Shown: positions 39 through 24,138, numbered from the stretch's first letter. The stretch is DNA of 24,629 nucleotides from an uncultured Syntrophomonadaceae bacterium (GCA_964585625.1 CAZPET010000002.1:1-24629), one strand, 5' to 3'. Numbers and translations: made by a program. Notes: generated from the sequence alone by a model not told the origin.

Positions 39-1040
39 CTATACCCTGATCGTCCGCGCGGCGGCCTTGCGCAACCGGTTCATCAGTGCAGTTCCGAGGC
101 CTTGCGAAGAAACGCCCTCCGCCAGGATCAGGTCTACTCCCTGCGCATCAAAGCGGCGCAGCGCCGGAAAAAGGCGCTTCGCCGCCATCCGCAAACGACC
201 CGGCCCCGGCGGGACCTGTAAAATCCCCACCTTTAAACCCCTTTTTTGATAACCGGCAGCAAGGGCCCTGATCACAGCGATCCTCCTGCCGCAGGTGCCG
301 GCAACCAGGATCAGCGGAGCCCGGGGAGCATAATGGCGGTATTTCATCCCCGGGGCCCGGGGAGTATCCGCTTCGCTGCCGTGCGCCTCCGCCACTTCGG
401 TGCCGAGGGCCGCTTCCAGCTGCTCCCTGGAGATCCCGCCGGGGCGCAATATCAAAGGCCGGCCGCCGCACAGATCAAGGACCGTTGACTCCAGGCCTAC
501 GCGGCAGGAACCTCCGTCGAGGAGGGCATCGATCCTCCCGGCCAGGTCTTCAAGGACATGGTGGAGAGCGGTCGGACTGGGCCGCCCGGAACGGTTGGCG
601 CTCGGTGCGGCAATGGGCACCCCCGCGGCCCGGATCAGGCTTAGAGCCAACGGATGGGCGGGCATGCGTACCGCCACCGTGGGTAAACCGGCGCTGACCT
701 CCCGCGGCAGCGTAGCGGAACGGGGCAGCACCAGGCTGAGAGGCCCGGGCCAGAAGCGCCTCATCAGCTCGAGAGCGCTCCGGGGAATAAATGAGGTTAC
801 CTCTTTAACCTGCCCCAGGCCGGCCACGTGGACGATCAGCGGGTTGTCCGCCGGACGCCCCTTCGCTATGAATATATTCTTAACCGCCCGCCTGTCCGTG
901 GCGGCGGCCCCCAATCCATAGACGGTCTCGGTGGGAAAAGCCACCAGCCCGCCGCGGCGGATTATCCGGGCCGCGGCCAACACTGTTTTACGGCCGGGAG
1001 GGAGGACCAGGGTTTGGTTGATCCGCAGCACTTTCGGCAT
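39..1040 (-). CDS. sua5: L-threonylcarbamoyladenylate synthase (Sua5/YwlC; YrdC domain plus SUA5 domain)
   Basis: VAFPTETVYGLGA, AKGRPADNPLIVH, APSANRSGRPSPT and PGMKYRHYAP motifs. Start reassigned to ATG 1040 with SD GGAGG (333 aa); the ORF-track start at 1175 overlaps the upstream gene. Confidence 0.95.
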   Translation of the reverse strand: MPKVLRINQTLVLPPGRKTVLAAARIIRRGGLVAFPTETVYGLGAAATDRRAVKNIFIAKGRPADNPLIVHVAGLGQVKEVTSFIPRSALELMRRFWPGPLSLVLPRSATLPREVSAGLPTVAVRMPAHPLALSLIRAAGVPIAAPSANRSGRPSPTALHHVLEDLAGRIDALLDGGSCRVGLESTVLDLCGGRPLILRPGGISREQLEAALGTEVAEAHGSEADTPRAPGMKYRHYAPRAPLILVAGTCGRRIAVIRALAAGYQKRGLKVGILQVPPGPGRLRMAAKRLFPALRRFDAQGVDLILAEGVSSQGLGTALMNRLRKAAARTIRV

Positions 1041-1069
1041 CTTATTCCTCCACGGCGCCGCCGGCGCAC

Positions 1070-2686
1070 TTAAAATTCTTCGACAACCAGCTGGGCGATG
1101 TTGGTAGCATGATCGGCTATCCGCTCCATGTTGCTCAATACGTCGAGATAGATCACTCCCGAAGGGGGATAACATTTTTTCGTGTTGATCCTTTCGATAT
1201 GCGCTTTCCGTAAAACTTTCTCCATTAGATCAACCTCGTCGTCTTCAACCATGACCATGCGGGCAAGCGGTTTGTTTTCCGTCTCGAAGGCCTGGATGGC
1301 CCGCTCCAGCATGATATTGATCTTCTCATAGATCAGGCTGAGCTCTTCAAGCGCCTGCTCGGAAAAGGGGAGCCTGTCCTCAACTTTGAGTTCGGCCAAC
1401 TGCTTGATATTATGTGCATGATCGCCGATCCTCTCCAGGTCATTTGCCGCGGACATGAACCGGCCGGTCATTTTTGATTGAGTTTCGGTAAGCGGGTTTT
1501 GGGAAAGCTCAGCCAGGAAGATATTAATCCCCTCCTCCAGGTTGTCGAGGAGCTCTTCCATCTGCTCAATATGCGCCCCCTTTTTCAAATCGTTTTTTAG
1601 AAAGGTCTCCAGCGCTTCGCCGATCATCTCGCGGGCAATCATAGCCATGCGCAGCAGCTCTTTTTTGGCCCCCCGGATGGCTGCCGCCGGCGTGGGCAGC
1701 ATCCGCTTGTCCAGATATGTAGGGCCGATTTCGATGCTCACCTCTTCACCGGGAACCAGGTAACTGATAAACCTGGTGAAATAAGGCAGGATCAGAATGA
1801 AGACCGCGGAGTTGAGAACATTGAAAATAGTATGCGCGTTGGCCACTTGACGGGTTACCGTGGATGCTGTTTTCAAGACCAGACTGGTAAAGGGTGTCAG
1901 TAGAAAAAGACAGAGGATCACCCCGATAACATTAAAGAAAAGATGGGCCATTGCGGTGCGCCGGGCAGTCACATTGGTCCCCGCGCTGGCAATAAAAGCA
2001 ACCACGCAGGTCCCGATGTTCGACCCTAAAATCAGGGGCACAGCTTCGGGCAAAGAAATCATTCCCTGCGTGCTCATGGCGATGATCACGCCGGTGAAGG
2101 CGCTGCTGCTCTGAAGTATTGCCGTGAATAGAGCTCCGCCGAGCACTCCCAGCAGGGGGAAAGCGCTGAATTGTGCCAGGAGACTATTGAAAGCAGGCAG
2201 TTTTTTCAGGGGGCTTAAACCGGCCGACATGGTGGTGATGCCGAGAAATAAAAGACCCATCCCCAGGATGGCCTCGCCGAGGTATCGATACTGCCTGCGC
2301 CTGCTGAAAAAGATAATGAGCGCACCAAGGCCGATAACAGAATAAGCGATATGTTCAATTTTAAAAGAAATGAGCTGCGCTGTTACAGTCGTGCCGACAT
2401 TCGCGCCGATAATCACGCTGATCGCCTGTGAAAGGCTGATCAATCCGGCGTTGGCAAAACCTACGACCATGACCGTGGTCGCTCCGCTGCTCTGGATGAG
2501 CATGGTAATCAAAATTCCGGTGAGAACACCGATGATCGGACGTGTGGTCAGCACTTCGAGGATCCGGCGCAGCCTGTCCCCGGCCGCCTTCTGCATCCCC
2601 GTAGCCATCAGCTCGATGCCATACAAAAAAAGCCCCAGACCGCCAACAGCAATGAAGGCGATTTGCAAATGATCTCGCCAGATCAC
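1070..2686 (-). CDS. Na+/Pi cotransporter family protein (NptA/YqeW/YjbB-like) with C-terminal PhoU-like domains
   Basis: Two hydrophobic repeats with QSSG/QSSS signature segments (GANVGTT, GSNIGT); C-terminal helical PhoU-like region (DLERIGDHA, MERIADHA). GTG 2686 with SD AGGAGGT. Confidence 0.9.
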   Translation of the reverse strand: MIWRDHLQIAFIAVGGLGLFLYGIELMATGMQKAAGDRLRRILEVLTTRPIIGVLTGILITMLIQSSGATTVMVVGFANAGLISLSQAISVIIGANVGTTVTAQLISFKIEHIAYSVIGLGALIIFFSRRRQYRYLGEAILGMGLLFLGITTMSAGLSPLKKLPAFNSLLAQFSAFPLLGVLGGALFTAILQSSSAFTGVIIAMSTQGMISLPEAVPLILGSNIGTCVVAFIASAGTNVTARRTAMAHLFFNVIGVILCLFLLTPFTSLVLKTASTVTRQVANAHTIFNVLNSAVFILILPYFTRFISYLVPGEEVSIEIGPTYLDKRMLPTPAAAIRGAKKELLRMAMIAREMIGEALETFLKNDLKKGAHIEQMEELLDNLEEGINIFLAELSQNPLTETQSKMTGRFMSAANDLERIGDHAHNIKQLAELKVEDRLPFSEQALEELSLIYEKINIMLERAIQAFETENKPLARMVMVEDDEVDLMEKVLRKAHIERINTKKCYPPSGVIYLDVLSNMERIADHATNIAQLVVEEF

Positions 2687-2739
2687 TCCCCAACCTCCTA
2701 AGAACAAGCAAGTTATTTTCTCTATTTGTCCAGGCTGAT

Positions 2740-3462
2740 TTAATTATAGAAGATCCGCTCTGCTTTTTCAATTATTTGTTGGCCCGGTCGCTTGATAAAT
2801 TCCCAAACCTTGCTCCGCCAGCGAACTGCATTCTGCGGCTGCCTGCCGGCGCCAGGATCCGGCGGCTCCTTCATGCCGGCGGTGAGAAGGCTCTCTTCTT
2901 CATCGCTTTCAAATCTCTGTTCTTCTTCCGCAGAGTGATTGTCAAATATTACCGGAGGGAGGCAAAGCGAAGGGAAAAGGAGACACCACCAGTTTTCGCC
3001 GGCACCCTCACCGATGGTGATCATCAAGGCAGTGTAATTTCCGGCCGGGTAGATCCGGCGTCCGTAGGTCCGCAAAGGGAATTTTTCTCGGGTAAGCCGT
3101 ACCCCGATTTGCGCCTCTTCCGCAGCAGCTGCGGCAAACTCCTGGAGGGATCTTTCAAGTTCGGGCAGATAACCCTGTAAAAACTCCAGGTAAATCTGAA
3201 TATTACCGGCTTCGGGCGGACTGTTTTCTGACAGCAGCTGACGCACCCGGGCGGCAAGAGCCATTTTGAAACGCTGCTCTGCCGGGCTGTCGCCTGCGGC
3301 CCGCACATGCAGCCGGACCACGGGTTCGCCGGCATGAATCTGCCAGCAGGCGGCCCCCGCCTGCCGGTGAACCGGGCGGAATGCCGGTCCCAGCAGGGCA
3401 ATGATCACAATTAAAACCATAAAGATAAACCAGTGATCTTTAAGGATTGTTCTTTTCTTCAT
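2740..3462 (-). CDS. spoIIR: Stage II sporulation protein R
   Basis: N-terminal hydrophobic signal; RLHV.A..DS..EQ..K; FP.RTYG..YPAG.Y.AL.I.IGEGAGENWWCLLFPSLC, the SpoIIR signature. SD GGAGG inside the upstream sigma gene. Downstream of prfA-prmC as in Bacillus. Confidence 0.9.
   Translation of the reverse strand: MKKRTILKDHWFIFMVLIVIIALLGPAFRPVHRQAGAACWQIHAGEPVVRLHVRAAGDSPAEQRFKMALAARVRQLLSENSPPEAGNIQIYLEFLQGYLPELERSLQEFAAAAAEEAQIGVRLTREKFPLRTYGRRIYPAGNYTALMITIGEGAGENWWCLLFPSLCLPPVIFDNHSAEEEQRFESDEEESLLTAGMKEPPDPGAGRQPQNAVRWRSKVWEFIKRPGQQIIEKAERIFYN
2743..2771 (-). promoter_or_regulatory. sigmaA-type promoter embedded in the last codons of spoIIR
   Basis: TTGAAA (2771-2766)-N17-TATAAT (2748-2743), about 55 nt upstream of the Na/Pi gene start. 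Confidence 0.7.
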
Positions 3463-4264
3463 CGCGGTTCTCCTCCGGGTTGGATTCCTGCTTGTAGTGG
3501 CGGCGGATCATCTCCAGGGCCGCTTTTTCAATCCTTGAAACCTGGGCCTGAGAAATACCCACCTGCCTGGCAATTTCAACCTGGGTTTTTCCTTCGAAGA
3601 AGCGCGCTTCGATGATCCGTTTTTCCCTGGGATCAAGCTTATCCAGGGCCTCCTGCAGGGCTATGTTTTCGAGCCACTTCTCGGTGCTGTCGGATTGGTC
3701 GCTGATCAGATCCATTACATAGACCGGATCGGTGCTGTCGCGGAAAACCGGATCGTAAAGCGATACCGGTTCCTGGGCGGCGTTAAAGGCAAACACCACC
3801 TCTTCGGTGGTCATCTCCATGGCCTCGGCAATTTCACTGAGGTTGGGTTCGCGGTGATTTTTTTTCAGCAGCTCTTCCCTGGTCTGGAGAACCCGGTGGG
3901 AGAGGCTCTTGATTGAACGGCTGATATGGATGCTGTTGTTGTCGCGCAGGTAACGCTTGATTTCACCAATCACCATCGGGACGGCGTAGGTTGAAAAGTT
4001 TACTTCATGCTCCAGCTCGAAGTTATCAATCGCCTTGAGCAAGCCGATACAGCCAACCTGGAAGAGATCGTCCAGTGATTCACCCCGGTTTTTGAAACGC
4101 TGCAGGATGCTTAAAACCAGGCGCAGGTTTCCCCTGACCAGGGTATCCCGGGCTTCAAGGTCTCCTTTTTTGACCCGGCAAAACAGCTCTTTCATCTCTT
4201 CTGTCGACAGGATCGCCAGTTTGAAGGTGTTTACCCCGCTGAGCTTAACTTTGTTCGGCAGCAC
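3440..4264 (-). CDS. sigG: Sporulation sigma factor, sigmaG-like (probable paralog or relocated sigG)
   Basis: SigG-type N-terminus (NKVKLSGVNTFKLAIL vs NKVEICGVDTSKLPVL), GNLRLVLS, DDLFQVGCIGL, FSTYAVPMVIGEIKRYLRDNN, GKTQVEIARQVGISQAQVSRIEKAA. GTG start with SD GAGGAGG. Confidence 0.85.
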   Translation of the reverse strand: MLPNKVKLSGVNTFKLAILSTEEMKELFCRVKKGDLEARDTLVRGNLRLVLSILQRFKNRGESLDDLFQVGCIGLLKAIDNFELEHEVNFSTYAVPMVIGEIKRYLRDNNSIHISRSIKSLSHRVLQTREELLKKNHREPNLSEIAEAMEMTTEEVVFAFNAAQEPVSLYDPVFRDSTDPVYVMDLISDQSDSTEKWLENIALQEALDKLDPREKRIIEARFFEGKTQVEIARQVGISQAQVSRIEKAALEMIRRHYKQESNPEENRDEEKNNP

Positions 4265-4284
4265 GGCTCTTCCCTCCTCACCCC

Positions 4285-4314
4285 TATTATTGCCATTATC
4301 TGTCTCTCTTAGAC
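4285..4314 (-). promoter_or_regulatory. sigmaF-type promoter for the sigG-like/spoIIR unit
   Basis: GTCTA (4314-4310)-N15-GGCAATAATA (4294-4285) against the consensus GYWTA-N15-GGnrAnAnTw: the -10 matches fully, the -35 at 4/5. Confidence 0.65.
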
Positions 4315-4343
4315 ATTCTTGAGGGATTATTCTGGGGAAAAGA

Positions 4344-4352
4344 TGTTATAAT
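4344..4352 (+). promoter_or_regulatory. Extended -10 sigmaA promoter for nikR
   Basis: TGTTATAAT (TGn + TATAAT), 62 nt upstream of the nikR ATG; SD AAGGAGG present. Confidence 0.6.
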
Positions 4353-4414
4353 TGTTTTGGAATCTTCGATAACGCGAGTTAGGGCTCAACGCAACAATTA
4401 AGGAGGAAGTAAAC

Positions 4415-4834
4415 ATGGCCGGATTAATCCGTTTCGGAGTCTCCATGGACCGGGAGCTGCTTGAATCTTTTGACCGGGAAATAGTATTGAAAGGTTATGC
4501 CAACCGCTCGGAGGCGATCCGGGACCTGATCCGGAATCAACTGGTCGAAATGGAATGGTCCGGGGACGATGTCGAGGTGGCGGGAACGATCACCCTGGTT
4601 TACGATCACCATGTCCGTGGACTGAACGATCTTCTGCTGGAGCTGCAGCATCGTTACGTTGAACTGATCATTTCGACGATGCATGTTCACCTGGCGCATG
4701 ACCGCTGCCTGGAGGTGCTTTTAATCAAAGGGCCGGCCGGTGAAGCCAAAGAGGTGGCCAACCGGCTTCTCTCGGTCAAAGGGGTGATCCACGGCCGGCT
4801 GACCGCCACCTCCACGGGGGAAAAGCTAAAATAG
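4415..4834 (+). CDS. nikR: Nickel-responsive transcriptional regulator
   Basis: Ribbon-helix-helix N-terminus (RFGVSM..L..FD..I...GY.NRSEAIRDLIR); ACT-like C-terminal domain with the Ni ligand pattern QH...HVH.....C. Confidence 0.95.
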   Translation: MAGLIRFGVSMDRELLESFDREIVLKGYANRSEAIRDLIRNQLVEMEWSGDDVEVAGTITLVYDHHVRGLNDLLLELQHRYVELIISTMHVHLAHDRCLEVLLIKGPAGEAKEVANRLLSVKGVIHGRLTATSTGEKLK

Positions 4835-5710
4835 TCCCAGAAGAACACGGGGGAGATCCTGGTAATCATGCAGCAAGGTAAGCGTATGGAAGATATCGCG
4901 GCTCCGGCAAAGCGAAAGGATGTCGCCGCCCTGGGCGGCGCCGATCTCCAGGGCGATCAAGCCCGGCCCCCGGATAAAGGAGGACAGGGCATTCAGGATG
5001 CTCCGGTAAGCGGCAAGACCGTCCGGACCTCCATCCAGAGCAAGACGCGGTTCATAATCCCTGATTGTTGGGGGCAGGGTATCAATCTCCGCGGTGGCCA
5101 GGTAAGGCGGGTTTGCGACAATCAGGTTGAAACGGGGCGGCGGCTCTATCCCGGAAAGAGCATCAAAGTAATGGCCCGGGCAAAAATGGATCCGCCCGCT
5201 CACGCCGTGACGCGCCGCATTGGCCGCCGCCAGTTGCAGCGCCCCCGTTGAAAGATCGACCGCGCAAAAAGAGGCCTCCGGCAGATGATAGGCCAGCGTC
5301 ACCGCAAGGTTGCCGCTGCCGCTGCCCAGGTCAACTCCGTAAATTTCTCCTTCCCGGCTGCGGGCCCACTTCAGAACAGCATCGACCACCAGTTCGGTTT
5401 CCGGACGGGGAATAAGAACCTCCTTGTTGATCGTAAACTCCAGGCCGTAAAACTCTTTGCTTCCGGTAATATAAGCAACCGGCTCCCCAAGGACCCGCCG
5501 TTCAACCGCTGCTGTAAAGGCCGCCGCGATCTCTTTCTCCAGAACAGCGGAGCGCTCCAGGAAAACCTTCAGCCGGTCCCACCCCTGCAGGTGCGCCAGC
5601 AGAATTTCCGCTTCATCGCGTGGCTGTTCTATCCCCGCCTCTTTAAAACAAGAAGAAGCCCTTCGCAGAGCCTCTTCAACAGTGCTGTTGTTGTTCCCCA
5701 GCTGTTTCAA
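4826..5710 (-). CDS. prmC: Release factor glutamine methyltransferase (HemK)
   Basis: [21 protein letters not shown] motif [11 protein letters not shown]; TTG start overlapping the prfA stop (TTGA). Confidence 0.95.
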
Positions 5711-6777
5711 TTTCCTACATCCTGCAGCTGCCTTGCTTTCGCCGAAGCAGTCAGGCTGTCGATGATTTCGTCAAGATCACCCTCCAGCACCAGGTCGAGC
5801 TTGTGCAGGGTCAGCCCGATGCGGTGATCGGTAACCCGGTTTTGGGGAAAATTGTAGGTCCGGATACGTTCGCTGCGGTCACCGCTGCCGATCTGCGATC
5901 TCCGCTCCTCGGCCAGTTCGGCCTCCTGCTCGGTAATATATTTATCCATCAGCCTGCTGCGCATGACCCGGAGAGCTTTTTCCTTGTTTTTCAATTGCGA
6001 TTTTTCGTCCTGGCAGGTAACCACCAGCCCGGTTGGCAGGTGGGTCACCCGGACCGCGGACTGGGTGGTGTTCACGCTCTGACCGCCCGGGCCCGTGGAG
6101 CAGAAAGTATCAATGCGCAGCTCCTGGGGATTGATCTCTATCTCCACCTCTTCGGCTTCGGGGAGTACGGCCACGGTGGCGGCCGAAGTATGGATCCGTC
6201 CCCCCGATTCGGTGGCCGGAATGCGCTGCACCCTGTGGACACCGCTCTCATACTTCAGGCGGCTGTAAACACCACGGCCTTCTATGCCGGCAACCACCTC
6301 TTTAAAGCCGCCTATATCGGTGGCATGGGCATCGACGATCTCCACCTTCCAGCTGTTTCGCTCGGCATAGCGGCTGTACATTCTTAAAAGATCGGCGGCA
6401 AAAAGAGCGGCCTCTTCGCCGCCGGTGCCCGCCCGAATTTCCAGAAAAACACTCTTTTCATCGTGGGGATCGCGCTGCAACAGCTGCTCTTTCAGTTTTT
6501 CAACGGTCTCTTCAAGACACCCGGTTAACTTTTCGATCTCTTCCTGCAGAAAATCGGAAAGTTCGCCCCCGTTGTCTTCCTGTAAAAGTTCGCGGGCATC
6601 AGCCAGCTCCCGGTTCAAACTTCTGTAACTCCGGTAGAGTTCAACTCCCGGTGCCAGTTCGGCCAGTTCCCGGGAATACTGCTGCCATAGCTCCATCTGG
6701 GCCAGCACTTCCGGATCGCTGAGGAGCCGCTCAAGCTCACCATATCGTTCTTCAATTAATTCCATTTTTTCAAACAT
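5707..6777 (-). CDS. prfA: Peptide chain release factor 1
   Basis: GGQ motif ([10 protein letters not shown]), RF1 PAT tripeptide, [28 protein letters not shown]. Confidence 0.98.
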
Positions 6778-7684
6778 TATTTATCACCCCGGGCTTGAGA
6801 TGGCCCCCGGATCCGCCTTCCACTGCATCCGGCTCCAGCACCGCTTTCAGAGCACAGAGAGCCACTTCAACCTGGCCGTTATCCGGCTCGTTGGTAGTCA
6901 GGTTCTGCAGCCATAAACCGGGCAGCGTAAGCAGCCGGAGCAGCGGCGAGCGGCTGCGCGCCGTAAGGCGGATCGCTTCATAAGAGATCCCGGCCACCAG
7001 CGGCAGCATGAGCAGGCGGATAGCGATGCGCTGCCATAAAGAGACCCACCCGAAAAGGGAAAAAAGCAGGATGCTCAGAACCATCACAATAAGGAGAAAA
7101 CTGGTCCCGCAGCGGGGATGGTGAGTGCTGTATTGCTGCGCTTTCTGTACCTCCAGAGGATCACCGGCCTCGTAGCAGAATATGGCCTTATGCTCCGCAC
7201 CGTGGTAAGCAAAGAAACGCTTCATTTCACCCCATCGGGTCACCAGAAAAAGGTAGGCCAGAAAAATGGCCAGCCGGATCAACCCTTCTACCAGGTTTAA
7301 GACCACCGGGTGCAGGCGCTGCGGTAAGAAGCCGGCCAGCCAGGTGGGTAGGATGAAAAAAAGCCCCACCCCCAACGCCAGGCCAAGCACGACCACCAGA
7401 ACCGTCTGCCAGCCCTGCATCTCCTCCCCCTCTTCCTGAAGAACCTCTGCCGCCGAGAGATTAAGAGCATGCACGCCGAGAATGAGCGATTCGAAAAAAG
7501 AGACCATGCCTCTCAGGATCGGCCAGCCCAGGGGAGAGTAGCGCACGGCCAGGGGTACTTTTTTTTCCGAAATAAGGTTGATGGTGTTATCACTGCGCCG
7601 GCAGGCAACCGCCAACCGGTCGTGATAGCGCATCATCACCCCTTCAAGCACCGCCTGCCCGCCAACCCATTGCGGCCTTGTCAT
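6770..7684 (-). CDS. DUF1385 (YqhQ-like) membrane protein, predicted metal-dependent
   Basis: [14 protein letters not shown]-terminus, [23 protein letters not shown] motifs; commonly found between rpmE and prfA/prmC in clostridia. Confidence 0.88.
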
Positions 7685-7726: not shown

Positions 7727-7927
7727 TTACTCCATGCCGTACTTCCGCTTGAAGCGCTCCACCCTGCCTCCGGTATCGACGAACTTCTGCTTGCCGGTAA
7801 AGAAAGGATGGCACTTGGAGCATATTTCCACCTTCAGGTTCTCCCTGGTGGAACCGGTTTCAAAAGTTTCCCCGCAGGCGCAGGTGACCACCGTGCGGAA
7901 ATAGCGGGGATGAATTTTCTCTTTCAT
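7727..7927 (-). CDS. rpmE: 50S ribosomal protein L31, Zn-binding (C+) type
   Basis: [12 protein letters not shown]...[24 protein letters not shown]. Confidence 0.97.
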
Positions 7928-7992: not shown

Positions 7993-8102
7993 CAGGCCGG
8001 CCTATGACCAGCCCCGCATCTATTCACACACCGTGAGCCCGGATGAGAACAAGGGGAGCCAAGAATTGCAGAGCCCCGGGAAGTTTCACGCAAATCGAAC
8101 CT

Positions 8103-9638
8103 CTAATTGCCGCCGATCTGCGTCTCCCTGATGTAATCTTCAACAGTATCGCGGTCACTGTAAGGGAGAGTCTGCTCCCCGATGATCTGGCACTCTTCGT
8201 CTCCTTTCCCGGCCAGCAGCACCATGTCCCCCGGCCGGGCCATGGCCAGAGCATGGAAGACCGCCTCCCGCCGGTCGGGAATAACGAGCGGCGGACAGCG
8301 CATCCCTTTCTTGATATCATCTATAATTGCCGACGCATCTTCTCCGGCGGGGTTGTCGGTAGTCAGGATCACCTCGTCGCTGTAGAGCTCGGCGATCCGG
8401 CCCATCAGCGGCCGTTTCCCCCGATCCCTTTCTCCGGGACAGCCAAAGAGGGTGATCCGCCGGCGGGCCGGCCGGGTGAAAAGCAGTTTCAAGACCTGCT
8501 CCAACCCGTCGGGGGTATGGGCAAAATCGATAATCACGGTAAAGCCGGCCCGGGTTTCGATTTCCTCAAAGCGTCCCGGCACCTGCCGGAGTCCATTCAA
8601 CCCTGCGGCAACAGCTTCCGGAGCCAAACCTTCTTTGCGAGCTACCGCCGCTGCCGCGAGGGCATTGTAGACATTGAACTTCCCCGGCAGCTTCAATATT
8701 ACCCGAAAAGTTGTGGGCCACCCGAGCAGGTCAAAGCTGTAGAGCCCTGTTTCTGTTCGTGCAACATTAACTGCCCGCACGCCGGCCGCTGCCGCCCGGA
8801 TCCCGTAGGCCAGCCGGGGCAGCTCCGCGGCCCGCGCCTCCAGCTCACTGTGGTAGCGGTCATCGGCGTTGAGTATTACCCCGCCGCTCGAATGTTCCTT
8901 CAACAGGTTCATCAGCATACTTTTAGCCGCCAGGTATTCCTGCATATTGTGGTGGTAATCGAGGTGTTCCCGGGTCAGGTTGGTATAGACCACACTGTCA
9001 AACAGACAGTGAGCTGCGCGGCGCTGCACCAGGGCATGGGATGAAACCTCCATGGCCACAACTTCCGCTCCCTGCTGCAGTGAAAAATGAAGGTGTTCCT
9101 GCAAATCCAGCGATTGGGGAGTGGTCAAATCAAACTTTCGCCTGATTCCGTTTACAATAAGGCCGTTGCTGCCCAAAATGGCAGTCCTGTGACCGGCAGC
9201 TTCAAAGATACTGTCAATAAAATAGGTGGTCGTGGTCTTTCCATTGGTGCCGGTTACACCGATCATTTTCATCTTGCGGCTTGGAAAACCGTAATAGCAT
9301 GCTGCCGCCGCAGAGAGGGCCAGGCCGGTATCGTCCACCGTAATGACGGGGATCCCGTTTTCCTCCAGGCCGACCGGGCGGGAAACAACCAGGGCCACAG
9401 CACCCCGGCGAACCGCCTCGGCCGCATAATCATGGCCGTCGGCTTTTCTCCCCGGCAGGCAAAAAAAAAGGGTGCCCGGTTTTACTTTCGCCGAATGATA
9501 GGCCAGCCGGGCGATAGGAATTGACTCCAGGCGCTTTTTTAGCTCCCGGCCGGCAAACGGCTCCAGCAATGTCCAGGCATTAAATCCTTCGCTGGAATAC
9601 CCGTCATTTTTTTCAGTGTAGAACTCACTTCGTTTCAA
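8103..9638 (-). CDS. murE: MurE-family UDP-MurNAc-dipeptide:diamino-acid ligase with L-Lys-type DNPA motif
   Basis: GVTGTNGKTT P-loop, MEVSSHAL, TNLTREHLDYH, FNVYNALAA, GRFE, DFAHTPDGL, FGCPGERDRGKRPLMG, DNPA, AGKGDE. TTG start position uncertain. Confidence 0.9.
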   Translation of the reverse strand: MKRSEFYTEKNDGYSSEGFNAWTLLEPFAGRELKKRLESIPIARLAYHSAKVKPGTLFFCLPGRKADGHDYAAEAVRRGAVALVVSRPVGLEENGIPVITVDDTGLALSAAAACYYGFPSRKMKMIGVTGTNGKTTTTYFIDSIFEAAGHRTAILGSNGLIVNGIRRKFDLTTPQSLDLQEHLHFSLQQGAEVVAMEVSSHALVQRRAAHCLFDSVVYTNLTREHLDYHHNMQEYLAAKSMLMNLLKEHSSGGVILNADDRYHSELEARAAELPRLAYGIRAAAAGVRAVNVARTETGLYSFDLLGWPTTFRVILKLPGKFNVYNALAAAAVARKEGLAPEAVAAGLNGLRQVPGRFEEIETRAGFTVIIDFAHTPDGLEQVLKLLFTRPARRRITLFGCPGERDRGKRPLMGRIAELYSDEVILTTDNPAGEDASAIIDDIKKGMRCPPLVIPDRREAVFHALAMARPGDMVLLAGKGDEECQIIGEQTLPYSDRDTVEDYIRETQIGGN

Positions 9639-9679: not shown

Positions 9680-10555
9680 CTATGGCAGGTATTTTAGCGG
9701 ATTCACATTTTCACCGGCGGCATGAATCTCAAAATGCAGGTGCGGTCCGGTGGTATTGCCGGTCAATCCGATATAACCCAGCGTTTGCCCCGGTGAAACC
9801 TGCTGGCCTGCCGACACGGCGGTCTTGCAGGCATGGCCATAGCGGGTCAGGTAACCACCGCCGTGGTTTACCTCAATCATGATCCCGTAGCTCCCCCGGT
9901 AGCCGGCATGGGTGACCCGGCCTCCGGCGGCGGCATGGAAAGCGGTGCCGTAAGCGACGGCAATGTCAATCCCGTAGTGAAACTTCCCGTTACGCCAACC
10001 GTAACCGGACGTCAGCCTTCCCTGCACCGGCCAGTGAAATGATACTCTCTGTGAGCCGCGGGAATCAACCCCGCCGGGGACAATAACTCGTTCTCCTCTG
10101 GGCAATGCCGCCGGGTCGCTGATCTCATTTGCCTGTAAAATGGTTGTTTCATCGACCCCGTAAGCGGCGGCAATGGCTTCCACCGTATCGCCTTCTTTAA
10201 CATCATGGATACAGCCAACCACGGTCAATATCTCCAGGCGATCCCCGGGGTGAATCAGGGCGGGGTTGACAATATCATTCAACCGGACCAGCGTATCAAC
10301 ATCGGTCCCGAAGCGTGCCGCGATCGTGTAAAGGCAATCCATCGGCTCAACAATATACTCCAGAATTTTCGGCTTGAGGGCCTCTTCTTCACAGCTTTTT
10401 GCAGCTGTGAAATCCTGCAACTGCAAATAATATAACGGCACCTCACCAGATTCGCCATCTTCTTCAAGTTCCGAAGCAGAAGCCTTTTCCACATGGCCGA
10501 GACAGGCCAGCCCTACGATCAACGCTACCGTTGCTGCTTTTAAAAGACCTGACAT
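9680..10555 (-). CDS. Exported peptidoglycan endopeptidase: signal peptide, 2x LysM, M23 domain
   Basis: Hydrophobic N-terminus with ASA cleavage-like site; two LysM repeats (GDT/DCL..IA..YG); M23 Zn motifs HYGID and HLHFE. SD AAGGAGG. Confidence 0.9.
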   Translation of the reverse strand: MSGLLKAATVALIVGLACLGHVEKASASELEEDGESGEVPLYYLQLQDFTAAKSCEEEALKPKILEYIVEPMDCLYTIAARFGTDVDTLVRLNDIVNPALIHPGDRLEILTVVGCIHDVKEGDTVEAIAAAYGVDETTILQANEISDPAALPRGERVIVPGGVDSRGSQRVSFHWPVQGRLTSGYGWRNGKFHYGIDIAVAYGTAFHAAAGGRVTHAGYRGSYGIMIEVNHGGGYLTRYGHACKTAVSAGQQVSPGQTLGYIGLTGNTTGPHLHFEIHAAGENVNPLKYLP

Positions 10556-10683: not shown

Positions 10684-11967
10684 CTAGAATGTATACATGT
10701 TGCTTAAGAAATCCTCGTTGTTCTTGGTCTGTTTCAGCTTGTCGAGCAGCATCTCGAGGAATTCAACGTTTTGAGTATTCCCCATTGCCCGCCGCAATGC
10801 CCACATCAGCTCGATCTTGCGCTCGTCGAGGAGCAGCTCTTCGCGGCGCGTTCCGGAACGCGAAATATCAATGGCCGGGAAAATTCGCCTCTCGGAGATC
10901 TTGCGGTCCAGGTGCAGCTCCATGTTGCCGGTTCCCTTAAATTCTTCGTAAATTACATCGTCCATTCTGCTGCCGGTGTCAATTAAAGCAGTGGCTATGA
11001 TGGTCAGGCTGCCTCCGCCGTCAATGTTCCGCGCCGCCCCAAAAAAGCGCTTCGGTTTATAAAACGCAGCCGGGTCAATCCCCCCCGAAAGTGTCCGGCC
11101 GCTGGGAGGGATCACCAGGTTGTAGGCGCGGGCGAGGCGGGTAATGCTGTCCAGCAGAATGGCCACATCGCGGCCCTGCTCTACAAGGCGCTGGGCCCGT
11201 TCCAGGACCAGTTCGGAAATGCGGATATGGTTTTCCGGTTTCTGGTCGAAGGTGGAGCTGGCCACATCAGCTTTTACGCTGCGCTCCATATCGGTGACCT
11301 CTTCAGGACGTTCATCAACCAGCAAGATGATCAGGGTAACCTCGGGATGATTGGTAGAGATGCTGTTGGCAATCTGCTTGAGCAGGATTGTCTTTCCCGC
11401 TTTCGGCGGAGAGACGATCAGGCCCCGCTGCCCTTTGCCGATGGGGATAAGAAGATCGATAATCCTGGTGGAAAGAATGTGGGGTTCTGTCTCCATCCGC
11501 AGCGCTTCACGCGGATGCACCGGAACCAGCGAGGTAAAGTTGGGCCGGCGCGAAAACGACTCGGGATCTTCATCGTTGATCGACTCGACCAGCAACAAAG
11601 CATTGTATCTTTCATTATCTTTTGGAGGCCTGATCTTTCCAGCCACCATATCGCCGGTTCGCAGGTTGAAACGGCGAATCTGTGACGCAGAAATATAGAT
11701 GTCATCATCAGAATAACAGTATTTGTAGCGGCGCAGAAATCCGAACCCGTCGTTCATAATTTCAAGGAGACCGGCCGCGGAGTCATGTTCTCTTTCTGTT
11801 TCGATTTTCCCTCCGTCCTCAGAAGTATAATCATCTGAGGTGAGGACACCGGTTAGCGCCTCAACCAGTTCCTGTTTGCGCATTGTTGAGTGACCCCTGA
11901 TGGCCTTTTCCCTGGCCAAACGGCGCAGTTCACTTAGTGTTGAATTTTTTAATTGGCTTGGCTCCAA
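10684..11967 (-). CDS. rho: Transcription termination factor Rho
   Basis: Rho N-terminal helical domain, GFGFLR RNA-binding motif, [42 protein letters not shown]. Confidence 0.98.
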
Positions 11968-12538: not shown

Positions 12539-14539
12539 ATGAACTATTTTCGTGGTTTTTTAATTGTCTTTATTGTTTTGTTGCTGAGCATATCCGGAAG
12601 TTTTGGCTACCTGGTCTATACTATCGGGGAGATGGAGCAGCTTCCGGAGCCTTCACCTCCTTTGACCACGCGGATTTACGATTGCCGGGACGAACTCATG
12701 GCGGTCCGCTATGAAGAAAACCGCGTTGAGGTTCCCCTGGAGCGGGTTTCCGAATATTTGGTCAATGCCACGCTTGCCGTGGAAGACCGCCGGTTTTACC
12801 GGCATCACGGATTTGATCCGGCCGGCCTGGCCCGGGCGCTGCTAAGCAACCTTAAGGGAGGGCAGACCTCTCAGGGCGGCAGCACCATCACCCAGCAGCT
12901 GGCTAAAAATCTGTTCCTGTCGCATGATCGCACCTTGGAGCGAAAATTTAAAGAGGCTCTGTACACCATTCACCTGGAGAGCCGTTATCATAAAGATGAA
13001 ATCCTGGAAATGTATTTAAACACAATCTACTACGGTCACGCCGCTTACGGAGTCGAAGCCGCCGCTCAAACCTATTTCGGCAAATGCGCCGCCGATCTTA
13101 GCCTGGGTGAAGCGGCGCTCTTGGCCGGACTGCCTAAAGGCCCCTCTTATTACTCTCCCCACCTCAATCCGGAAGCGGCGGAGCAGCGCCAGAGAACAGT
13201 CTTGAGCCAGATGGTTTCCGCGGGCTTCATTGATGAGGATGAGAAAGAAACGGCCCTGCGGGAACAGCTGGGTTTCCGGGAGCTGTCAGATGAAGAAAGT
13301 CCGGCGTATTTTCTTGATTACGTGATCAACACCGAGCTCGCTGAATTATTTAACGGAGACTTGAATCCTGTTTACCGGGACGGCTTAAATATTTATACCA
13401 CCATTAACCCGGATATGCAGCAGCTGGCCCAGGAGACCATTGCCGGAATCCCCACGCTGCGCCTCGATGAAAATGGAAAGAGACAGCCCCAGGGGGCGCT
13501 GGTGGCCATTGAGCCGGATACCGGCTATGTCAGGGCGATGGTGGGGGGGCGCGACTTCAAAGAAACAAGTTTAAACCGTGCTTTGGCCCTCCGTTCGCCG
13601 GGTTCTACTTTTAAACCTTTTGTTTATGCAGCGGCGCTTGAAAACGGCTTTACCGCGGCGGACCTGGTCAGCTGCGAAGCTGTTACTTTTAACGAAGCCG
13701 GCCTGGAGGAGCCGTATACGCCGACAGATTTCGGAGGAGGCTTTCACAACCGGGAGCTGACCATCCGTGAAGCGCTGGCAAAATCGTGCAATATTGCCGC
13801 GATCAAGGTGCATGATCAAATCGGGAAAGATAAAGCGGTGGAGATGGCCCGTCGGCTGGGTATCTCCAGCCCTTTGGGAGCCTACTTCTCACTGCCCCTG
13901 GGGACCGGCGAGGTATCCCTGCTCGAATTGACCGCTGCTTTTGCCACGTTCGCCAACGGAGGCTTCCGCATCGACCCCCTGGTCATCCGTAAAGTTGTGG
14001 ATCCGCAGGGAAGGGTGCTGCTGGAGAACCGGCCGCAAAAAGAGCAGGTTCTGGACCCGGCCATCGCTTTTTTGATCACCGATATGCTCAAAGGTGTCCT
14101 CGGGGAAGGAGGCACCGCCAGTGCCGCCGGATCGATTCTAAACCGCCCCGCGGCAGGCAAATCGGGCACCTCTCAGGAGAGTAAAAATGCGCACATGATC
14201 GGTTATACGCCGCAGCTGGTAGCCGGTATATATGTCGGTGACGATTACGAGAAACCGATTGATTTTTCAGGAGGAGGCGCAGCCGCCCCCCTGTGGGCCT
14301 GGTTCATGAAGCTCGCCTTGCAAGATAGCGCTGTTCTCGATTTTGAAGTTCCCGGGGGAATCGTCAGCTGCTCCCTCTGCCCGGAATCGGGATTGCTGCG
14401 CAGCCCTTTCTGCCCGGAACCGCTCAAAGATGAATTTTTCATTAGCGGAACTGAACCGGCAGAAGAGTGCCGCCTCTGCCGTCCTGCTTTCTGGTGGCCC
14501 TGGCTCCCCTCGTTAAAACATTCACCCGCTCTTCCTTAA
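12539..14539 (+). CDS. Class A bifunctional penicillin-binding protein (PBP1A family, PbpG/YwhE-like)
   Basis: Single N-terminal TM; GT51 motifs EDRRF and GGSTITQQLAKNL; transpeptidase motifs STFK, SCN, KSG. ATG 12539 with SD GGGGAG. Confidence 0.93.
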   Translation: MNYFRGFLIVFIVLLLSISGSFGYLVYTIGEMEQLPEPSPPLTTRIYDCRDELMAVRYEENRVEVPLERVSEYLVNATLAVEDRRFYRHHGFDPAGLARALLSNLKGGQTSQGGSTITQQLAKNLFLSHDRTLERKFKEALYTIHLESRYHKDEILEMYLNTIYYGHAAYGVEAAAQTYFGKCAADLSLGEAALLAGLPKGPSYYSPHLNPEAAEQRQRTVLSQMVSAGFIDEDEKETALREQLGFRELSDEESPAYFLDYVINTELAELFNGDLNPVYRDGLNIYTTINPDMQQLAQETIAGIPTLRLDENGKRQPQGALVAIEPDTGYVRAMVGGRDFKETSLNRALALRSPGSTFKPFVYAAALENGFTAADLVSCEAVTFNEAGLEEPYTPTDFGGGFHNRELTIREALAKSCNIAAIKVHDQIGKDKAVEMARRLGISSPLGAYFSLPLGTGEVSLLELTAAFATFANGGFRIDPLVIRKVVDPQGRVLLENRPQKEQVLDPAIAFLITDMLKGVLGEGGTASAAGSILNRPAAGKSGTSQESKNAHMIGYTPQLVAGIYVGDDYEKPIDFSGGGAAAPLWAWFMKLALQDSAVLDFEVPGGIVSCSLCPESGLLRSPFCPEPLKDEFFISGTEPAEECRLCRPAFWWPWLPSLKHSPALP

Positions 14540-15147
14540 AGAAGAAACGGATTGCTGCGCGCTTCTGTTTCGATCGTGGTGGCCGGGCCGTGTCCTGGAT
14601 ATACCACGGTCTGCGGCGGCAATACCATCAACTTCTCTTTAATACTGCCGATCAAGAGCGTGTAGGAGCCGCCGGCAAGATCGGTCCGGCCGATGGAACC
14701 GGCAAAAAGAGTGTCGCCGGTAAAAACGACCCCGTCGCCATAAAGTGAAATGCCGCCCCCGGTATGGCCGGGGGTCTCAAGAACAGCAAGAACCTTCCGG
14801 CCAACAGGGATCTGCTCGCCTTCTTTGAGCAGACGGTCAGGCTGTACCGGTTTGCCGAAGAGAACTCCCAGCCCGAAGCCGGGGTTGCAGTATATTTCCA
14901 GATCCTTCTCAGGCAGCAAAAGCGGCGCCCGGAGGGCCTCTTTCAACCTCCCGTTGGCCCCGGTATGATCGATATGCCCGTGAGTGTTGACAATTCCGTT
15001 TATTTTTAGCCCGCTCTTCTCAATTTGATGCAAGATCCGCTTTCCTTCCGCACCTGGATCGATAACAATTCCCTCCCCTGTATCCGGACAGCTGACCAGG
15101 TAACAGTTTGTGGCAAACATGCTCACCACCAGTGCCTGTACATGCAT
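14536..15147 (-). CDS. MBL-fold metallo-hydrolase, glyoxalase II-like (YqgX/YcbL type)
   Basis: TNCYL, IDPG, THGHIDH, TPGHT, FTGDTLF, PGHG. SD AAGGAGG. Confidence 0.9.
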   Translation of the reverse strand: MHVQALVVSMFATNCYLVSCPDTGEGIVIDPGAEGKRILHQIEKSGLKINGIVNTHGHIDHTGANGRLKEALRAPLLLPEKDLEIYCNPGFGLGVLFGKPVQPDRLLKEGEQIPVGRKVLAVLETPGHTGGGISLYGDGVVFTGDTLFAGSIGRTDLAGGSYTLLIGSIKEKLMVLPPQTVVYPGHGPATTIETEARSNPFLL

Positions 15148-15287: not shown

Positions 15288-16217
15288 CTAATCCGTTCCA
15301 ACCTCCAGGAGCATGCGGACTGCCGGTAATATATCGGTAAGATCGCGGAGCAGGGGAGCGATCTTTCGCCTGACCGCATCTGCTCCGATCAACAGGGCCG
15401 GAACTTCATTTAGAGTATGCCTGCCGTGAGAAAGATCTTCGAGGTTTCCATGATCGCTGGTAACAATAAGGAGCGTCTGCCCCGGATCAAGATGTTCTGC
15501 TGCAGCGCCGAGAAAGCGATCCAGCGTGCTCACCACCTCGCTGGCCTGCTCCCGGCCGGCGAGGTGCCCGGCATAATCGCTCAAAAAATATTCAAAGAGA
15601 GAGAAATCAAAATTCCTGCCGATATCCACCAGCCTTTGGCCGGCCTCCTCGGGAGTGATCTCGGGAAGGGAGAAACCCATCTTGTTTAAAAGCTCATTGG
15701 TCAGGTCCATATAAAGGGCCTTCCCGGCCTTCAAATCATCGAGGTTGTAAAAGTGGAGCCCTCCAAAGAAGGTGATCAGGGTTGAACAGGAGTGGCGCCA
15801 CCCGGGAAGCCCCTCCTTCAATTTTTCAAAAAAAGGCGGGCGGTAGGCATTGATAAAGGCACAGCGGTAGCCCTCCTCCCGGAGAGAGGCAAAGATCCCT
15901 TCCTTTGCCAGGAGTTCACGCAGGAAACGGTTGGGAAATCCGTTCAGGTGATAGCCGAGCCGGCGCGGCGCATTTGTTCCGGTAAAGATCGTTGCCTGCC
16001 CGGTGGCGCTCTGCGGCAGCCCCGCCACGCCCAGACACGCATCGAGCCCCAGCAGCGTAACCCGTCCATCGTGAAACCCGCTTATTTCCCTGGTCAGCGG
16101 GTTCCCCCGGAACAGCGTTTTAAAAAAGGGTGTTCCGGTAAAGACAAAAGGGTTCTCCGGAGCGATTTCTCCCAGGCCGACTCCGTCGATAAAAACAATA
16201 ATGACACGCAAACACAC
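15288..16217 (-). CDS. Alkaline-phosphatase-superfamily metalloenzyme (iPGM/phosphopentomutase-like core)
   Basis: Metal-ligand pattern IDGVG ... QSATG (nucleophile Ser) ... DYAGH ... SDHGN ... HT; only 309 aa. Confidence 0.75.
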   Translation of the reverse strand: MCLRVIIVFIDGVGLGEIAPENPFVFTGTPFFKTLFRGNPLTREISGFHDGRVTLLGLDACLGVAGLPQSATGQATIFTGTNAPRRLGYHLNGFPNRFLRELLAKEGIFASLREEGYRCAFINAYRPPFFEKLKEGLPGWRHSCSTLITFFGGLHFYNLDDLKAGKALYMDLTNELLNKMGFSLPEITPEEAGQRLVDIGRNFDFSLFEYFLSDYAGHLAGREQASEVVSTLDRFLGAAAEHLDPGQTLLIVTSDHGNLEDLSHGRHTLNEVPALLIGADAVRRKIAPLLRDLTDILPAVRMLLEVGTD

Positions 16218-16244
16218 TCCCCCATTTTTCTCCGGTTACCGCAC

Positions 16245-17390
16245 TTATTGCTCCGGGTTCGCTTCACCGGGCACAACCGTTACGACCAGGCTTTGGCCAT
16301 TTCGTTCGATTGTCAGCTCGATCTTATCTCCCGGGTAATAGTTCAACAAAGCATCAAAAAGCTGCGCAATATAGTGGACCCTTTCTTTGCCCACAGCCGT
16401 GATTACATCTCCGGTCTTGAGACCGCCTGCAGCCGCGGGGCTGCCCGGAATGACCTCCTTTACATTAACACCCTGGCGGACCGGGTTATCAGTTCCGTCA
16501 GATTGATTTTCCACCCAGATGCCCAGCTGCGGACGGCGGACCCGGCCGTCTTTTTTCAGATCATCAACCACCCGTTTAACGGTATTGGCGGGGATGGCCA
16601 GGCCGATCCCTTCAGCGCCGCTGATCTTGGCCGAATTGATCCCGATCAGCTCACCGCGCAGGTTTACCAGGGGGCCGCCGCTGTTGCCGGGATTGATCAC
16701 CGCATCGGTTTGAATATAGGTATAGGCATACTGGCTGTAGGCCACCCTGACTTCGCGCTCCAGCGCGCTGATGATCCCCCGGGTAACAGTATGTTTAAGG
16801 TAACCCAGGGGATTGCCGGCCGCCAGAACGGTCTCACCGACCCGCACCGCGTTGGAATTGCCGAGAGGAATATAGCTAAGACCGGACTGCTCGATTTTCA
16901 ACAGGGCCAGGTCGGTCAGACGGTCCTCTCCCACCAGTCCGGCTTCGAAACTGCGCGAATCGGAAGTCACCACCACGATCCGCGCAGCACCGTCGATGAC
17001 ATGCTGGTTCGTAACAATATAGCCGTCTTCCGAAATAACCGCCCCTGATCCGCTGCCGCTCAGCACGAGCTCGCTCTGGTCTGAATATGGCCCGGAAACA
17101 TAACAATTAACCGCCACCACTGCCGGCATCACCCGGCTCACCACATCCACCGTGGCCAGGTCATCTTTATGAGGGGGCAAGTTTGCCTGCCGGTTCTCCT
17201 CCGGGGTTTGCTGCTCCCCTTCAGGAAGATCCCCCGGCCCGGGAAGGTAACCATGACCGGTTAAAACGAAGTAGACGAGCAATGCACCGGCCAGGACCCC
17301 GCAAAGCCCAACCAGGAACAAGGTCCAGGCTGGAACCTTGCGGACATCTTTGCCGGAGTAATGACCACGATCGTTTCCAGAGTTCACCAC
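16245..17390 (-). CDS. htrA: Membrane-anchored HtrA/DegP-family serine protease with one PDZ domain (HtrC/YyxA position)
   Basis: N-terminal TM; catalytic triad TNQHV, DLALLK, GNSGGP; C-terminal PDZ domain. SD AAGGAGG. Confidence 0.95.
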   Translation of the reverse strand: MVNSGNDRGHYSGKDVRKVPAWTLFLVGLCGVLAGALLVYFVLTGHGYLPGPGDLPEGEQQTPEENRQANLPPHKDDLATVDVVSRVMPAVVAVNCYVSGPYSDQSELVLSGSGSGAVISEDGYIVTNQHVIDGAARIVVVTSDSRSFEAGLVGEDRLTDLALLKIEQSGLSYIPLGNSNAVRVGETVLAAGNPLGYLKHTVTRGIISALEREVRVAYSQYAYTYIQTDAVINPGNSGGPLVNLRGELIGINSAKISGAEGIGLAIPANTVKRVVDDLKKDGRVRRPQLGIWVENQSDGTDNPVRQGVNVKEVIPGSPAAAGGLKTGDVITAVGKERVHYIAQLFDALLNYYPGDKIELTIERNGQSLVVTVVPGEANPEQ

Positions 17391-17410: not shown

Positions 17411-17451
17411 AGTTTACAATATACTTTTTGGAAATGTAAAGGATCTGTTAG
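17411..17451. promoter_or_regulatory. htrA promoter region: sigmaA-type promoter, inverted repeat and WalR-box-like direct repeat
   Basis: Minus strand TTTACA-N18-TAAACT; plus strand TTTACA-N16-TGTAAA palindrome (17413-17440); TGTAAA-N5-TGTTAG (17435-17451). Confidence 0.45.
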
Positions 17452-18062
17452 TCCTGTAAATGACTGATATCGTTAAACAATAGCAGGCGGCCGCCCTCCC
17501 CGCCGGGATCACACTTAACAATTGACAACGAAGCGGGAGCAGAGGCATACGGCCACTTCTGCCTGGAGGAGAATCCCAAACATCCGGAGATGAAGGCATT
17601 GATCAGCCGGCCGTGGCTAACGAGGAGAATCCGCTGTAACCCGGGATTTCCACGGCAGATCTTCCGCCGCAGGGTTCGGGTTCGTGCCAGCAGTTTTCGT
17701 TCACTTTCTCCTCCGCAGCGAAGCGCTCTCAATATGCCGCTTCCGGAGTGAAAGAGAAAAGGATAGGCGGTCTCCACTTCACTGCGCCGCATACCCTCAA
17801 TATAACCCCAGGAGCATTCCCTAAGCAGGGGTTCCCGCAGCGGTGCAAGCTTGATTCCCCGGGAAATAATTTCTGCGGTTAACCAGGCCCGCTGCAGATC
17901 GCTGCTTAAAAAAAGCTCAAAGCCGCCGGTTATGCTTAAACGCAGGGATAATCGTGCCGCTTCGCGGCTCCCCTCTTCGTTAAGGTGAAAGTCGCACCGT
18001 CCCTGGAAGCGCCCCTCCTCGACGGCTGAAGTTCTCCCGTGCCGGACCAGCCAGAACTCCAT
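17448..18062 (-). CDS. Histidine phosphatase family protein (PhoE/CobC/GpmB-like)
   Basis: LVRHG, SSDLQRA..TA, LRE.SWG..EG, LVSHG; starts 1 nt after the murA stop. Confidence 0.88.
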   Translation of the reverse strand: MEFWLVRHGRTSAVEEGRFQGRCDFHLNEEGSREAARLSLRLSITGGFELFLSSDLQRAWLTAEIISRGIKLAPLREPLLRECSWGYIEGMRRSEVETAYPFLFHSGSGILRALRCGGESERKLLARTRTLRRKICRGNPGLQRILLVSHGRLINAFISGCLGFSSRQKWPYASAPASLSIVKCDPGGEGGRLLLFNDISHLQD

Positions 18063-18063
18063 C

Positions 18064-19353: not shown

Positions 19354-19367
19354 TTCATCTTCTCCCG

Positions 19368-24055: not shown

Positions 24056-24138
24056 GGTATCTCTCCTTAAAAACAAGCTCAAATCACAATTTCGTTTCCC
24101 GGTTATTGAATCCCTGCTGGAACAAGTTTACTTTGGAT

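Follow-up and report, generated by a model that had tools for sequence, protein, structure and literature searches.

A sigG-spoIIR gene pair outside the sigE locus in Dethiobacteria-type genomes

In the textbook picture of sporulation, sigG lies directly after spoIIGA-sigE and spoIIR is a separate σF gene. In Bacillus subtilis, sigG is read by σF and later by σG, and spoIIR is a σF gene whose product activates SpoIIGA (PMC5942855, PMC3789822). Early sigG output is damped in this organism by a 14-nucleotide (nt) promoter spacer, a GTG start codon and a hairpin that masks the ribosome-binding site (RBS); a 15-nt spacing has been reported to be more usual in Clostridia (PMC5942855). A literature search returned no paper on the adjacency of sigG and spoIIR or on the sporulation sigma factors of Dethiobacter. 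Here we analyze a stretch of 24,629 nt from an uncultured Syntrophomonadaceae bacterium (GCA_964585625.1, CAZPET010000002.1:1-24629; hereafter the window, meaning the whole stretch), in which a sigG gene overlaps spoIIR.

The initial annotation of this DNA had described a full-length σG-like open reading frame (ORF) overlapping spoIIR by 23 base pairs (bp), with the spoIIR Shine-Dalgarno (SD) sequence in the codons of the sigma factor tail and a σF-type promoter just upstream. We recover each of these features (lengths of products in amino acids, aa):

3440-4264, minus strand: sigG, 274 aa, GTG start
2740-3462, minus strand: spoIIR, 240 aa, ATG start, with an N-terminal signal or anchor segment
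3440-3462, minus strand: overlap of sigG (3' end) with spoIIR (5' end), 23 bp
3470-3476, minus strand: spoIIR SD, GGAGGAG, 7 nt before the ATG at 3462 and within the sigG tail codons (...ESNPEENRDEEKNNP)
4285-4314, minus strand: predicted σF-type promoter, -35 GTCTA at 4310-4314, 15-nt spacer, -10 GGCAATAATA at 4285-4294
4272-4279, minus strand: sigG RBS, GAGGAGGG, 7 nt before the GTG and conserved in related loci L002-L008 and L083

Neither spoIIGA nor sigE, nor any other sigma factor gene, was found in the 24.6-kb window or in ~255 kb of loci from the same lineage. The gene does not occupy the usual, but non-defining, position of sigG directly 3' of spoIIGA-sigE. We consider it quite likely that it is the ordinary sigG of its lineage, detached from spoIIGA-sigE and placed directly upstream of spoIIR in the rho-rpmE-prfA-prmC-...-sua5 cluster, the two genes forming one bicistronic unit. 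A relocated sigG physically tied to spoIIR, one of the two possibilities raised initially, fits the SigG family model, the tree, the signature residues, the σF-type promoter and the absence of a visible separate promoter for spoIIR.

By family model, phylogeny and signature residues, the window sigma factor is classified as SigG. It passes the NCBIfam SigG equivalog model NF006071 (399.4 bits, cut-off 372), whereas the SigF models score about 100 bits lower than NF006071, TIGR02885 giving 303 bits, below its cut-off of 321. The protein also exceeds the cut-off of the SigBFG model TIGR02980 (270.7 bits against 234) and contains Sigma70 regions 2, 3 and 4 according to Pfam. A neighbour-joining tree groups the window protein with its relatives in one clade (99% bootstrap) and splits this lineage, together with sigE-linked SigGs, from SigF (95.5% bootstrap); the SigF/SigG phylogeny that had been proposed as a check therefore places the protein within SigG. 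Lineage members keep the SigG residue in 71% of 42 columns that distinguish SigG from SigF, with no systematic drift toward SigF, and retain the N-terminal SigG block K5 V6 G10 N12 T13 L16.

More than 15 independent assemblies share the gene order nikR<-|sigG-spoIIR-NaPi-sua5, with SigG identity down to 62%. Eight species-representative genomes, including a metagenome-assembled genome (MAG) of Dethiobacter sp. and MAGs labelled Syntrophomonadaceae or Bacillota, carry prmC, nikR (on the opposite strand), sigG, spoIIR, the Na/Pi gene and sua5, and the same layout is present on NCBI, ENA, JGI and Logan contigs whose SigG is 87%, 69%, 63% and 62% identical to that of the window (loci with this layout: L002-L009 and L083-L090). 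NCBI labels the lineage members Dethiobacteria or Bacillota, one record being a 'Dethiobacteria bacterium', and names the proteins 'RNA polymerase sporulation sigma factor SigG'. When the 120 best matches are placed in a tree, the lineage clade takes in 95 of them, namely all those listed down to ~62% identity except P0082, P0089, P0092 and P0096; P0085, the most basal clade member sampled, still has spoIIR directly 3' of the sigma factor gene.

Since the same order is seen in more than 15 independent assemblies, we exclude the contig misassembly that had been named as a possible refutation. An assembly artefact or chimeric contig at sigG-spoIIR would have to be repeated, junction and flanks alike, in many independent NCBI, ENA, JGI and Logan assemblies, and we regard it as extremely improbable, even though one record, FZPS01000070.1 (L082), has other genes on both sides of nikR-sigG-spoIIR. 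In this 1.94-Mb record (region 806258-827082), the SigG (P0013) is identical to that of L083 (JBMNKB010000001.1), and the trio is preceded by a truncated M23 peptidase gene, spoIIID and mreB and followed by an ABC transporter gene. FZPS01000070.1 may be a metagenome assembly, because another FZPS01 contig (L110) is in the metagenome collection, and its large contig may be rearranged or chimeric.

The predicted promoter lies ~20 nt ahead of the sigG GTG codon. We scanned for σF sites with a relaxed pattern, GYNTA-N15-GGNNANANTA, derived from the B. subtilis consensus, so that lineage-specific promoters may be missed. The pattern matches once in the window, at the site listed above, where 0.04 matches are expected, and 4 of 100 shuffled sequences contained a match. 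Each of the 12 lineage loci has a single σF-type motif (at most one mismatch), located 49-71 nt upstream of sigG. The core, GT(C/T)TA-N15-GGCAA(T/G)A(A/C)TA, is kept across the lineage, and its flanks diverge completely in the more distant members; most members also keep the GTG start. The sigG leader is predicted to span only ~13-15 nt, and no RBS-occluding hairpin of the B. subtilis kind was found in it, the fold being no better than that of shuffled sequence (z -0.23). These features suggest that sigG is transcribed by σF from this promoter.

The junction between the two genes is also kept tight over 62-93% SigG identity. Among 11 lineage junctions including the window, the overlap is 23 nt in nine, the stop and start codons abut in L085 (TAGATG) and the overlap measures ~17 nt in L088; a 2-nt gap separates the genes in L090. 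The window SigG is longer than usual (274 aa against ~255-260 aa), and the surplus is a 17-aa C-terminal tail. The tail residues vary within the lineage (ESNPEENRDEEKNNP, EPQREESGDEGHGNR, EQKEQKKREEGGV, AGKGGIDDVCG), whereas the spoIIR SD and ATG, followed by the Lys/Arg codons of the SpoIIR signal segment, are kept. The 17 extra residues are therefore a by-product of the overlap, the outcome of translating GGAGGAG and ATGAAGAAA in the second frame: E and G come from the SD, and DEEK from the codons for the Lys-rich SpoIIR start when these are read in the sigG frame. We considered and ruled out a functional domain in the acidic tail, whose sequence is variable and follows from the spoIIR SD and start that it overlaps. 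No stable RNA structure was detected at the sigG-spoIIR junction, where the fold was no better than that of shuffled sequence.

Adjacency could also exist without co-transcription, with a spoIIR promoter inside sigG and the overlap reflecting mere compaction. A consensus taken from B. subtilis could overlook a lineage-specific or a Spo0A/σA-type promoter, and spoIIR of Clostridioides difficile is partly σF-independent (PMC3789822). We nonetheless find an internal promoter quite improbable. Between the sigG start and spoIIR, no σF-type motif (at most one mismatch) is present near spoIIR in the 12 lineage loci, the only hit being a weak match in L090 ~630 nt upstream of spoIIR, and a σ70-type scan of positions 900-4900 gave no promoter-like site inside sigG. 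Near the junction in other lineages, 16 of 18 loci likewise lack the motif, L100 and L094 each having one match with one mismatch. Moreover, that the genes still overlap or nearly touch after deep divergence is what operons typically show. Co-transcription of sigG and spoIIR as a bicistronic unit, and translational coupling between them, are accordingly what this arrangement predicts. The near-consensus σA-type site at the end of spoIIR leads us to place the 3' limit there, so that the sporulation unit probably consists of sigG-spoIIR alone:

2743-2771, minus strand: candidate σA-like promoter ahead of the Na/Pi-PhoU gene, TTGAAA-17-TATAAT, matching the consensus at 11 of 12 positions

In the arrangement that we propose, forespore σF-RNA polymerase would initiate at GTCTA-N15-GGCAATAATA, sigG would be translated from a strong SD and GTG on a very short leader, and ribosomes that reach the end of sigG would either start anew at the spoIIR SD and ATG, located 23 nt inside the sigG 3' end, or uncover them. 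Exported SpoIIR would trigger SpoIIGA and thereby the mother-cell processing of pro-σE, and σG would later take over forespore transcription and might use this promoter as well.

The product of the downstream gene matches Pfam Spore_II_R (PF09551) at 3e-30, has a hydrophobic N-terminus and contains the invariant NWWC..P.LC core (alignment A1). Its score of 107.5 bits against TIGR02837, below the cut-off of 151.9, is in line with the fast evolution of SpoIIR. SpoIIR proteins of the lineage also carry an acidic, low-complexity C-terminal extension of ~70 aa (residues ~170-240; window 2740-2960, minus strand). This extension ends in a conserved W-R-S-x-x-W-E...IFYN motif, which is present in L083 and partly in other lineages (A1).

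We also surveyed spoIIR neighbourhoods beyond this lineage by scanning metagenome contigs with the SpoIIR alignment, which yielded 80 diverse spoIIR loci, 63 of them with at least 600 nt upstream. In 15 of these 63 loci, sigG lies immediately upstream on the same strand; the resulting 24% is indicative only, as the sample is biased: it was drawn from the 600 pattern matches that came first, ordered by how closely they resemble a single SpoIIR. Tight pairing of sigG and spoIIR is thus common in other clostridia, mostly as spoIIGA-sigE-sigG-spoIIR-ylmC. In the nine paired loci with enough flanking sequence, spoIIGA-sigE stands in front in seven, is inverted in one (L106) and is absent from one (L154). 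sigG and spoIIR are separated by -4 to +33 nt, apart from one gap of 106 nt, and these gaps contain no σF motif. Surveyed for synteny, as the initial annotation had suggested, the pairing is found in the whole lineage and is not special to it.

Individual loci illustrate this range. L094 reads ftsA-ftsZ-spoIIGA-sigE-sigG-spoIIR-ylmC with a canonical-type SigG, and L095 has a canonical-type sigG-spoIIR pair followed by ylmC-nrdR, the called spoIIR start lying 148 nt past the sigG stop and an SD-preceded ATG lying at 13 nt. In L093, spoIIR follows 11 nt after the gene for a canonical-type SigG, which shares 77% identity with Thermoanaerobacterales SigG, and no sigE lies upstream. L106 (MTKW01010006.1) has spoIIGA-sigE inverted relative to sigG-spoIIR, and in L154 (Ga0316604_10000247) an MFS transporter gene precedes the pair and a serine recombinase gene follows it, ahead of ylmC-nrdR, which suggests a rearrangement at this site. 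Elsewhere, spoIIR is flanked by a variety of genes, pyrG and ispE among them, and L138 reads prfA-prmC-spoIIR with no sigG. Conversely, the Thermoanaerobacterales-like locus L091, the Syntrophomonadaceae locus L092 and Christensenellales-type loci carry sigE-sigG with no spoIIR.

Several observations weigh against the window gene being an ordinary, σF-transcribed sigG. The -35 element has C where the B. subtilis σF consensus GYWTA has A or T, and the predicted transcript start falls almost at the SD, which is unusual. The protein scores 385 bits against the older SigG model TIGR02850, below its cut-off of 457, and is only 57-60% identical to Thermoanaerobacterales-like and Syntrophomonadaceae SigGs, which are mutually 82% identical. 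Finally, no SigE could be assigned to the lineage, either in a SigE search seeded with L091, the nearest canonical organism (at least 120 SigEs), or by comparing the NCBI accessions of 10 candidates, which leaves room for a second, sigE-linked sigG. A third search for a sigE locus of the lineage, seeded with P0089, was crowded by canonical SigGs at 75-80% identity.

The divergence and the low TIGR02850 score would fit an extra SigG-like paralogue that is expressed together with SpoIIR as a second sigma factor of the forespore, in organisms whose canonical sigG still follows sigE. We nevertheless dropped divergence as a sign of paralogy, because sigE-linked SigGs of other lineages are equally divergent. 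They are 46-100% identical among themselves, and Christensenellales-type SigGs, encoded directly after a second sigma factor that we read as SigE (~30% identity), are as divergent or more so; they score 339-422 bits against TIGR02850, likewise below the cut-off, and the lineage proteins score 376-410 bits. The lineage clade also nests inside SigG, the sigG-spoIIR pairs of other lineages use the sigE-linked sigG, and L093 shows a canonical-type SigG in a detached pair. Three match tables contained no second SigG-class match tied to lineage contigs, a point of little weight, and surveys give one sigG per spore former (bioRxiv 10.1101/2022.02.25.481979). An extra paralogue is, in our view, unlikely, and the additional forespore sigma factor put forward in the initial annotation finds no positive support. 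Given that elsewhere it is the sigE-linked sigG that pairs with spoIIR, the window gene is most simply read as the sole, detached sigG of its lineage, presumably present in single copy.

The genes surrounding the pair are as follows:

10684-11967, minus strand: rho
9680-10555, minus strand: LysM/M23 peptidase gene
8103-9638, minus strand: murE
7727-7927, minus strand: rpmE
6770-7684, minus strand: DUF1385 gene
5707-6777, minus strand: prfA
4826-5710, minus strand: prmC
4415-4834, plus strand: nikR (NCBIfam NikR, 4.9e-56), divergent to sigG
1070-2707, minus strand: Na/Pi-cotransporter-PhoU fusion gene
39-1175, minus strand: sua5/tsaC

The window flanks, rho, rpmE, prfA and prmC on one side and sua5, then genes for a low-molecular-weight phosphatase, rpiB and glyA (these three seen in L083 and L085) on the other, are collinear with the B. 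subtilis spoIIR region. On the B. subtilis map, spoIIR lies between prmC and ywlC (sua5), the same slot as that of the window spoIIR. From this collinearity we tentatively infer that sigG moved to spoIIR in the prmC/sua5 slot in this lineage, and that in others spoIIR was the gene that moved, joining sigG at the sigE locus. Such a history would imply that a tight sigG-spoIIR operon arose more than once, a possibility that we consider less likely than not. If it did, the recurrence would imply selection for producing the σE-activating signal and σG from one message, for example by keeping SpoIIR strictly forespore-specific, dosed with σG or maintained by σG autoregulation.

nikR is a conserved neighbour of sigG-spoIIR and no functional part of the operon: it lies upstream of sigG in every lineage locus whose upstream flank could be read, mostly between sigG and prmC. 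A likely extended -10 element of nikR, TGTTATAAT (4344-4352, plus strand, read by eye), is ~30 bp from the sigG -35, which would set the two promoters back to back. On the other side, the lineage consistently has the Na/Pi-PhoU fusion gene between spoIIR and sua5, and the σA-like promoter of this gene lies in the spoIIR 3' end. L088 and L090 have extra LarB/LarC-type (AIRC, Ni_insertion) and NAD-synthase-like genes nearby, and L088 also has Fur and YibE_F genes. murE and the LysM/M23 peptidase gene are located between rho and rpmE, outside any division or cell-wall cluster.

Further along the window, positions 17448-24082 (minus strand) hold a WalR/WalK-YycH-YycI block, then murA and a histidine phosphatase gene. 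Past the WalRK block come HtrA (16245-17390), a metalloenzyme-family protein and a YycJ-like metallo-beta-lactamase (14536-15147), and the stretch from WalRK to YycJ is a spread-out form of the Bacillus walRK-yycHIJ-htrC (yycK) region. Two long plus-strand ORFs, 15792-17048 (418 aa), antisense to htrA, and 8043-9044 (333 aa), antisense to murE, lack a Pfam match; they are probably spurious reading frames of the kind that chance often yields opposite real genes.

The initial annotation had also seen in this locus a different wiring of the sporulation cascade. That claim is overstated. Canonical sigG is likewise transcribed by σF, so that regulators and targets relate as before. Other clostridia commonly have sigG and spoIIR as a tight pair, usually within the spoIIGA-sigE-sigG cluster. 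Finally, the arrangement is spread widely among relatives and NCBI already annotates the protein as SigG, which corresponds to two of the three parts of the first refuting condition given in that annotation. The locus represents a well-known system with a changed gene order and operon structure; it is mildly unusual and annotated in many public assemblies. It departs from the textbook at two levels, in that a sigG-spoIIR unit is frequent in uncultured clostridia and that, in Dethiobacteria-type genomes, this unit is fully detached from sigE and its genes overlap. For the annotation of MAGs, this means that sigG is not to be expected after sigE. The arrangement, which leaves the known logic of the cascade untouched, also bears on the evolution of forespore timing, as B. 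subtilis damps sigG relative to early σF genes (PMC5942855) whereas here sigG and an early gene would share a promoter, and it offers a natural test case for the translational coupling of a regulator with a signalling protein.

Compared with the spoIIGA-sigE-sigG cluster and monocistronic spoIIR of B. subtilis and C. difficile, the window encodes the same players, SigG and SpoIIR, the latter as the forespore signal for pro-σE processing. As in both species, sigG has a σF/σG-type promoter with a -10 of the GGnnAnAnTA kind, and it starts with GTG as in B. subtilis. Judged from its sequence, the difference appears to be physical, with both genes on one promoter and spoIIR translationally nested in sigG. 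Unlike in B. subtilis and C. difficile, sigG is not beside sigE, so that read-through from the spoIIG promoter is impossible, and it would share a single promoter with spoIIR, which it overlaps by 23 bp. The 15-nt spacer also differs from the damping 14-nt spacer of B. subtilis, and the locus combines a strong SD with neither room nor signal for an RBS-occluding leader hairpin.

The pair resembles that of clostridia with the order spoIIGA-sigE-sigG-spoIIR-ylmC (L094, L098, L100, L103, L109, L112, L125, L129 and L136), in which spoIIR likewise follows sigG on the same strand. In those nine loci, however, sigG-spoIIR belongs to the canonical sigE locus and encodes a highly conserved SigG (70-83% identical to the L091 reference), whereas in the window it occupies the prmC/sua5 locus, SigG has diverged and the genes overlap. 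The detached pairs of L093 and L154, and that of L106 with its inverted spoIIGA-sigE, share with the window the lack of a co-oriented spoIIGA-sigE directly upstream; they differ from it in their flanks, which are an MFS transporter gene or unknown genes, with ylmC-nrdR still downstream in L154, and in their canonical-type SigG.

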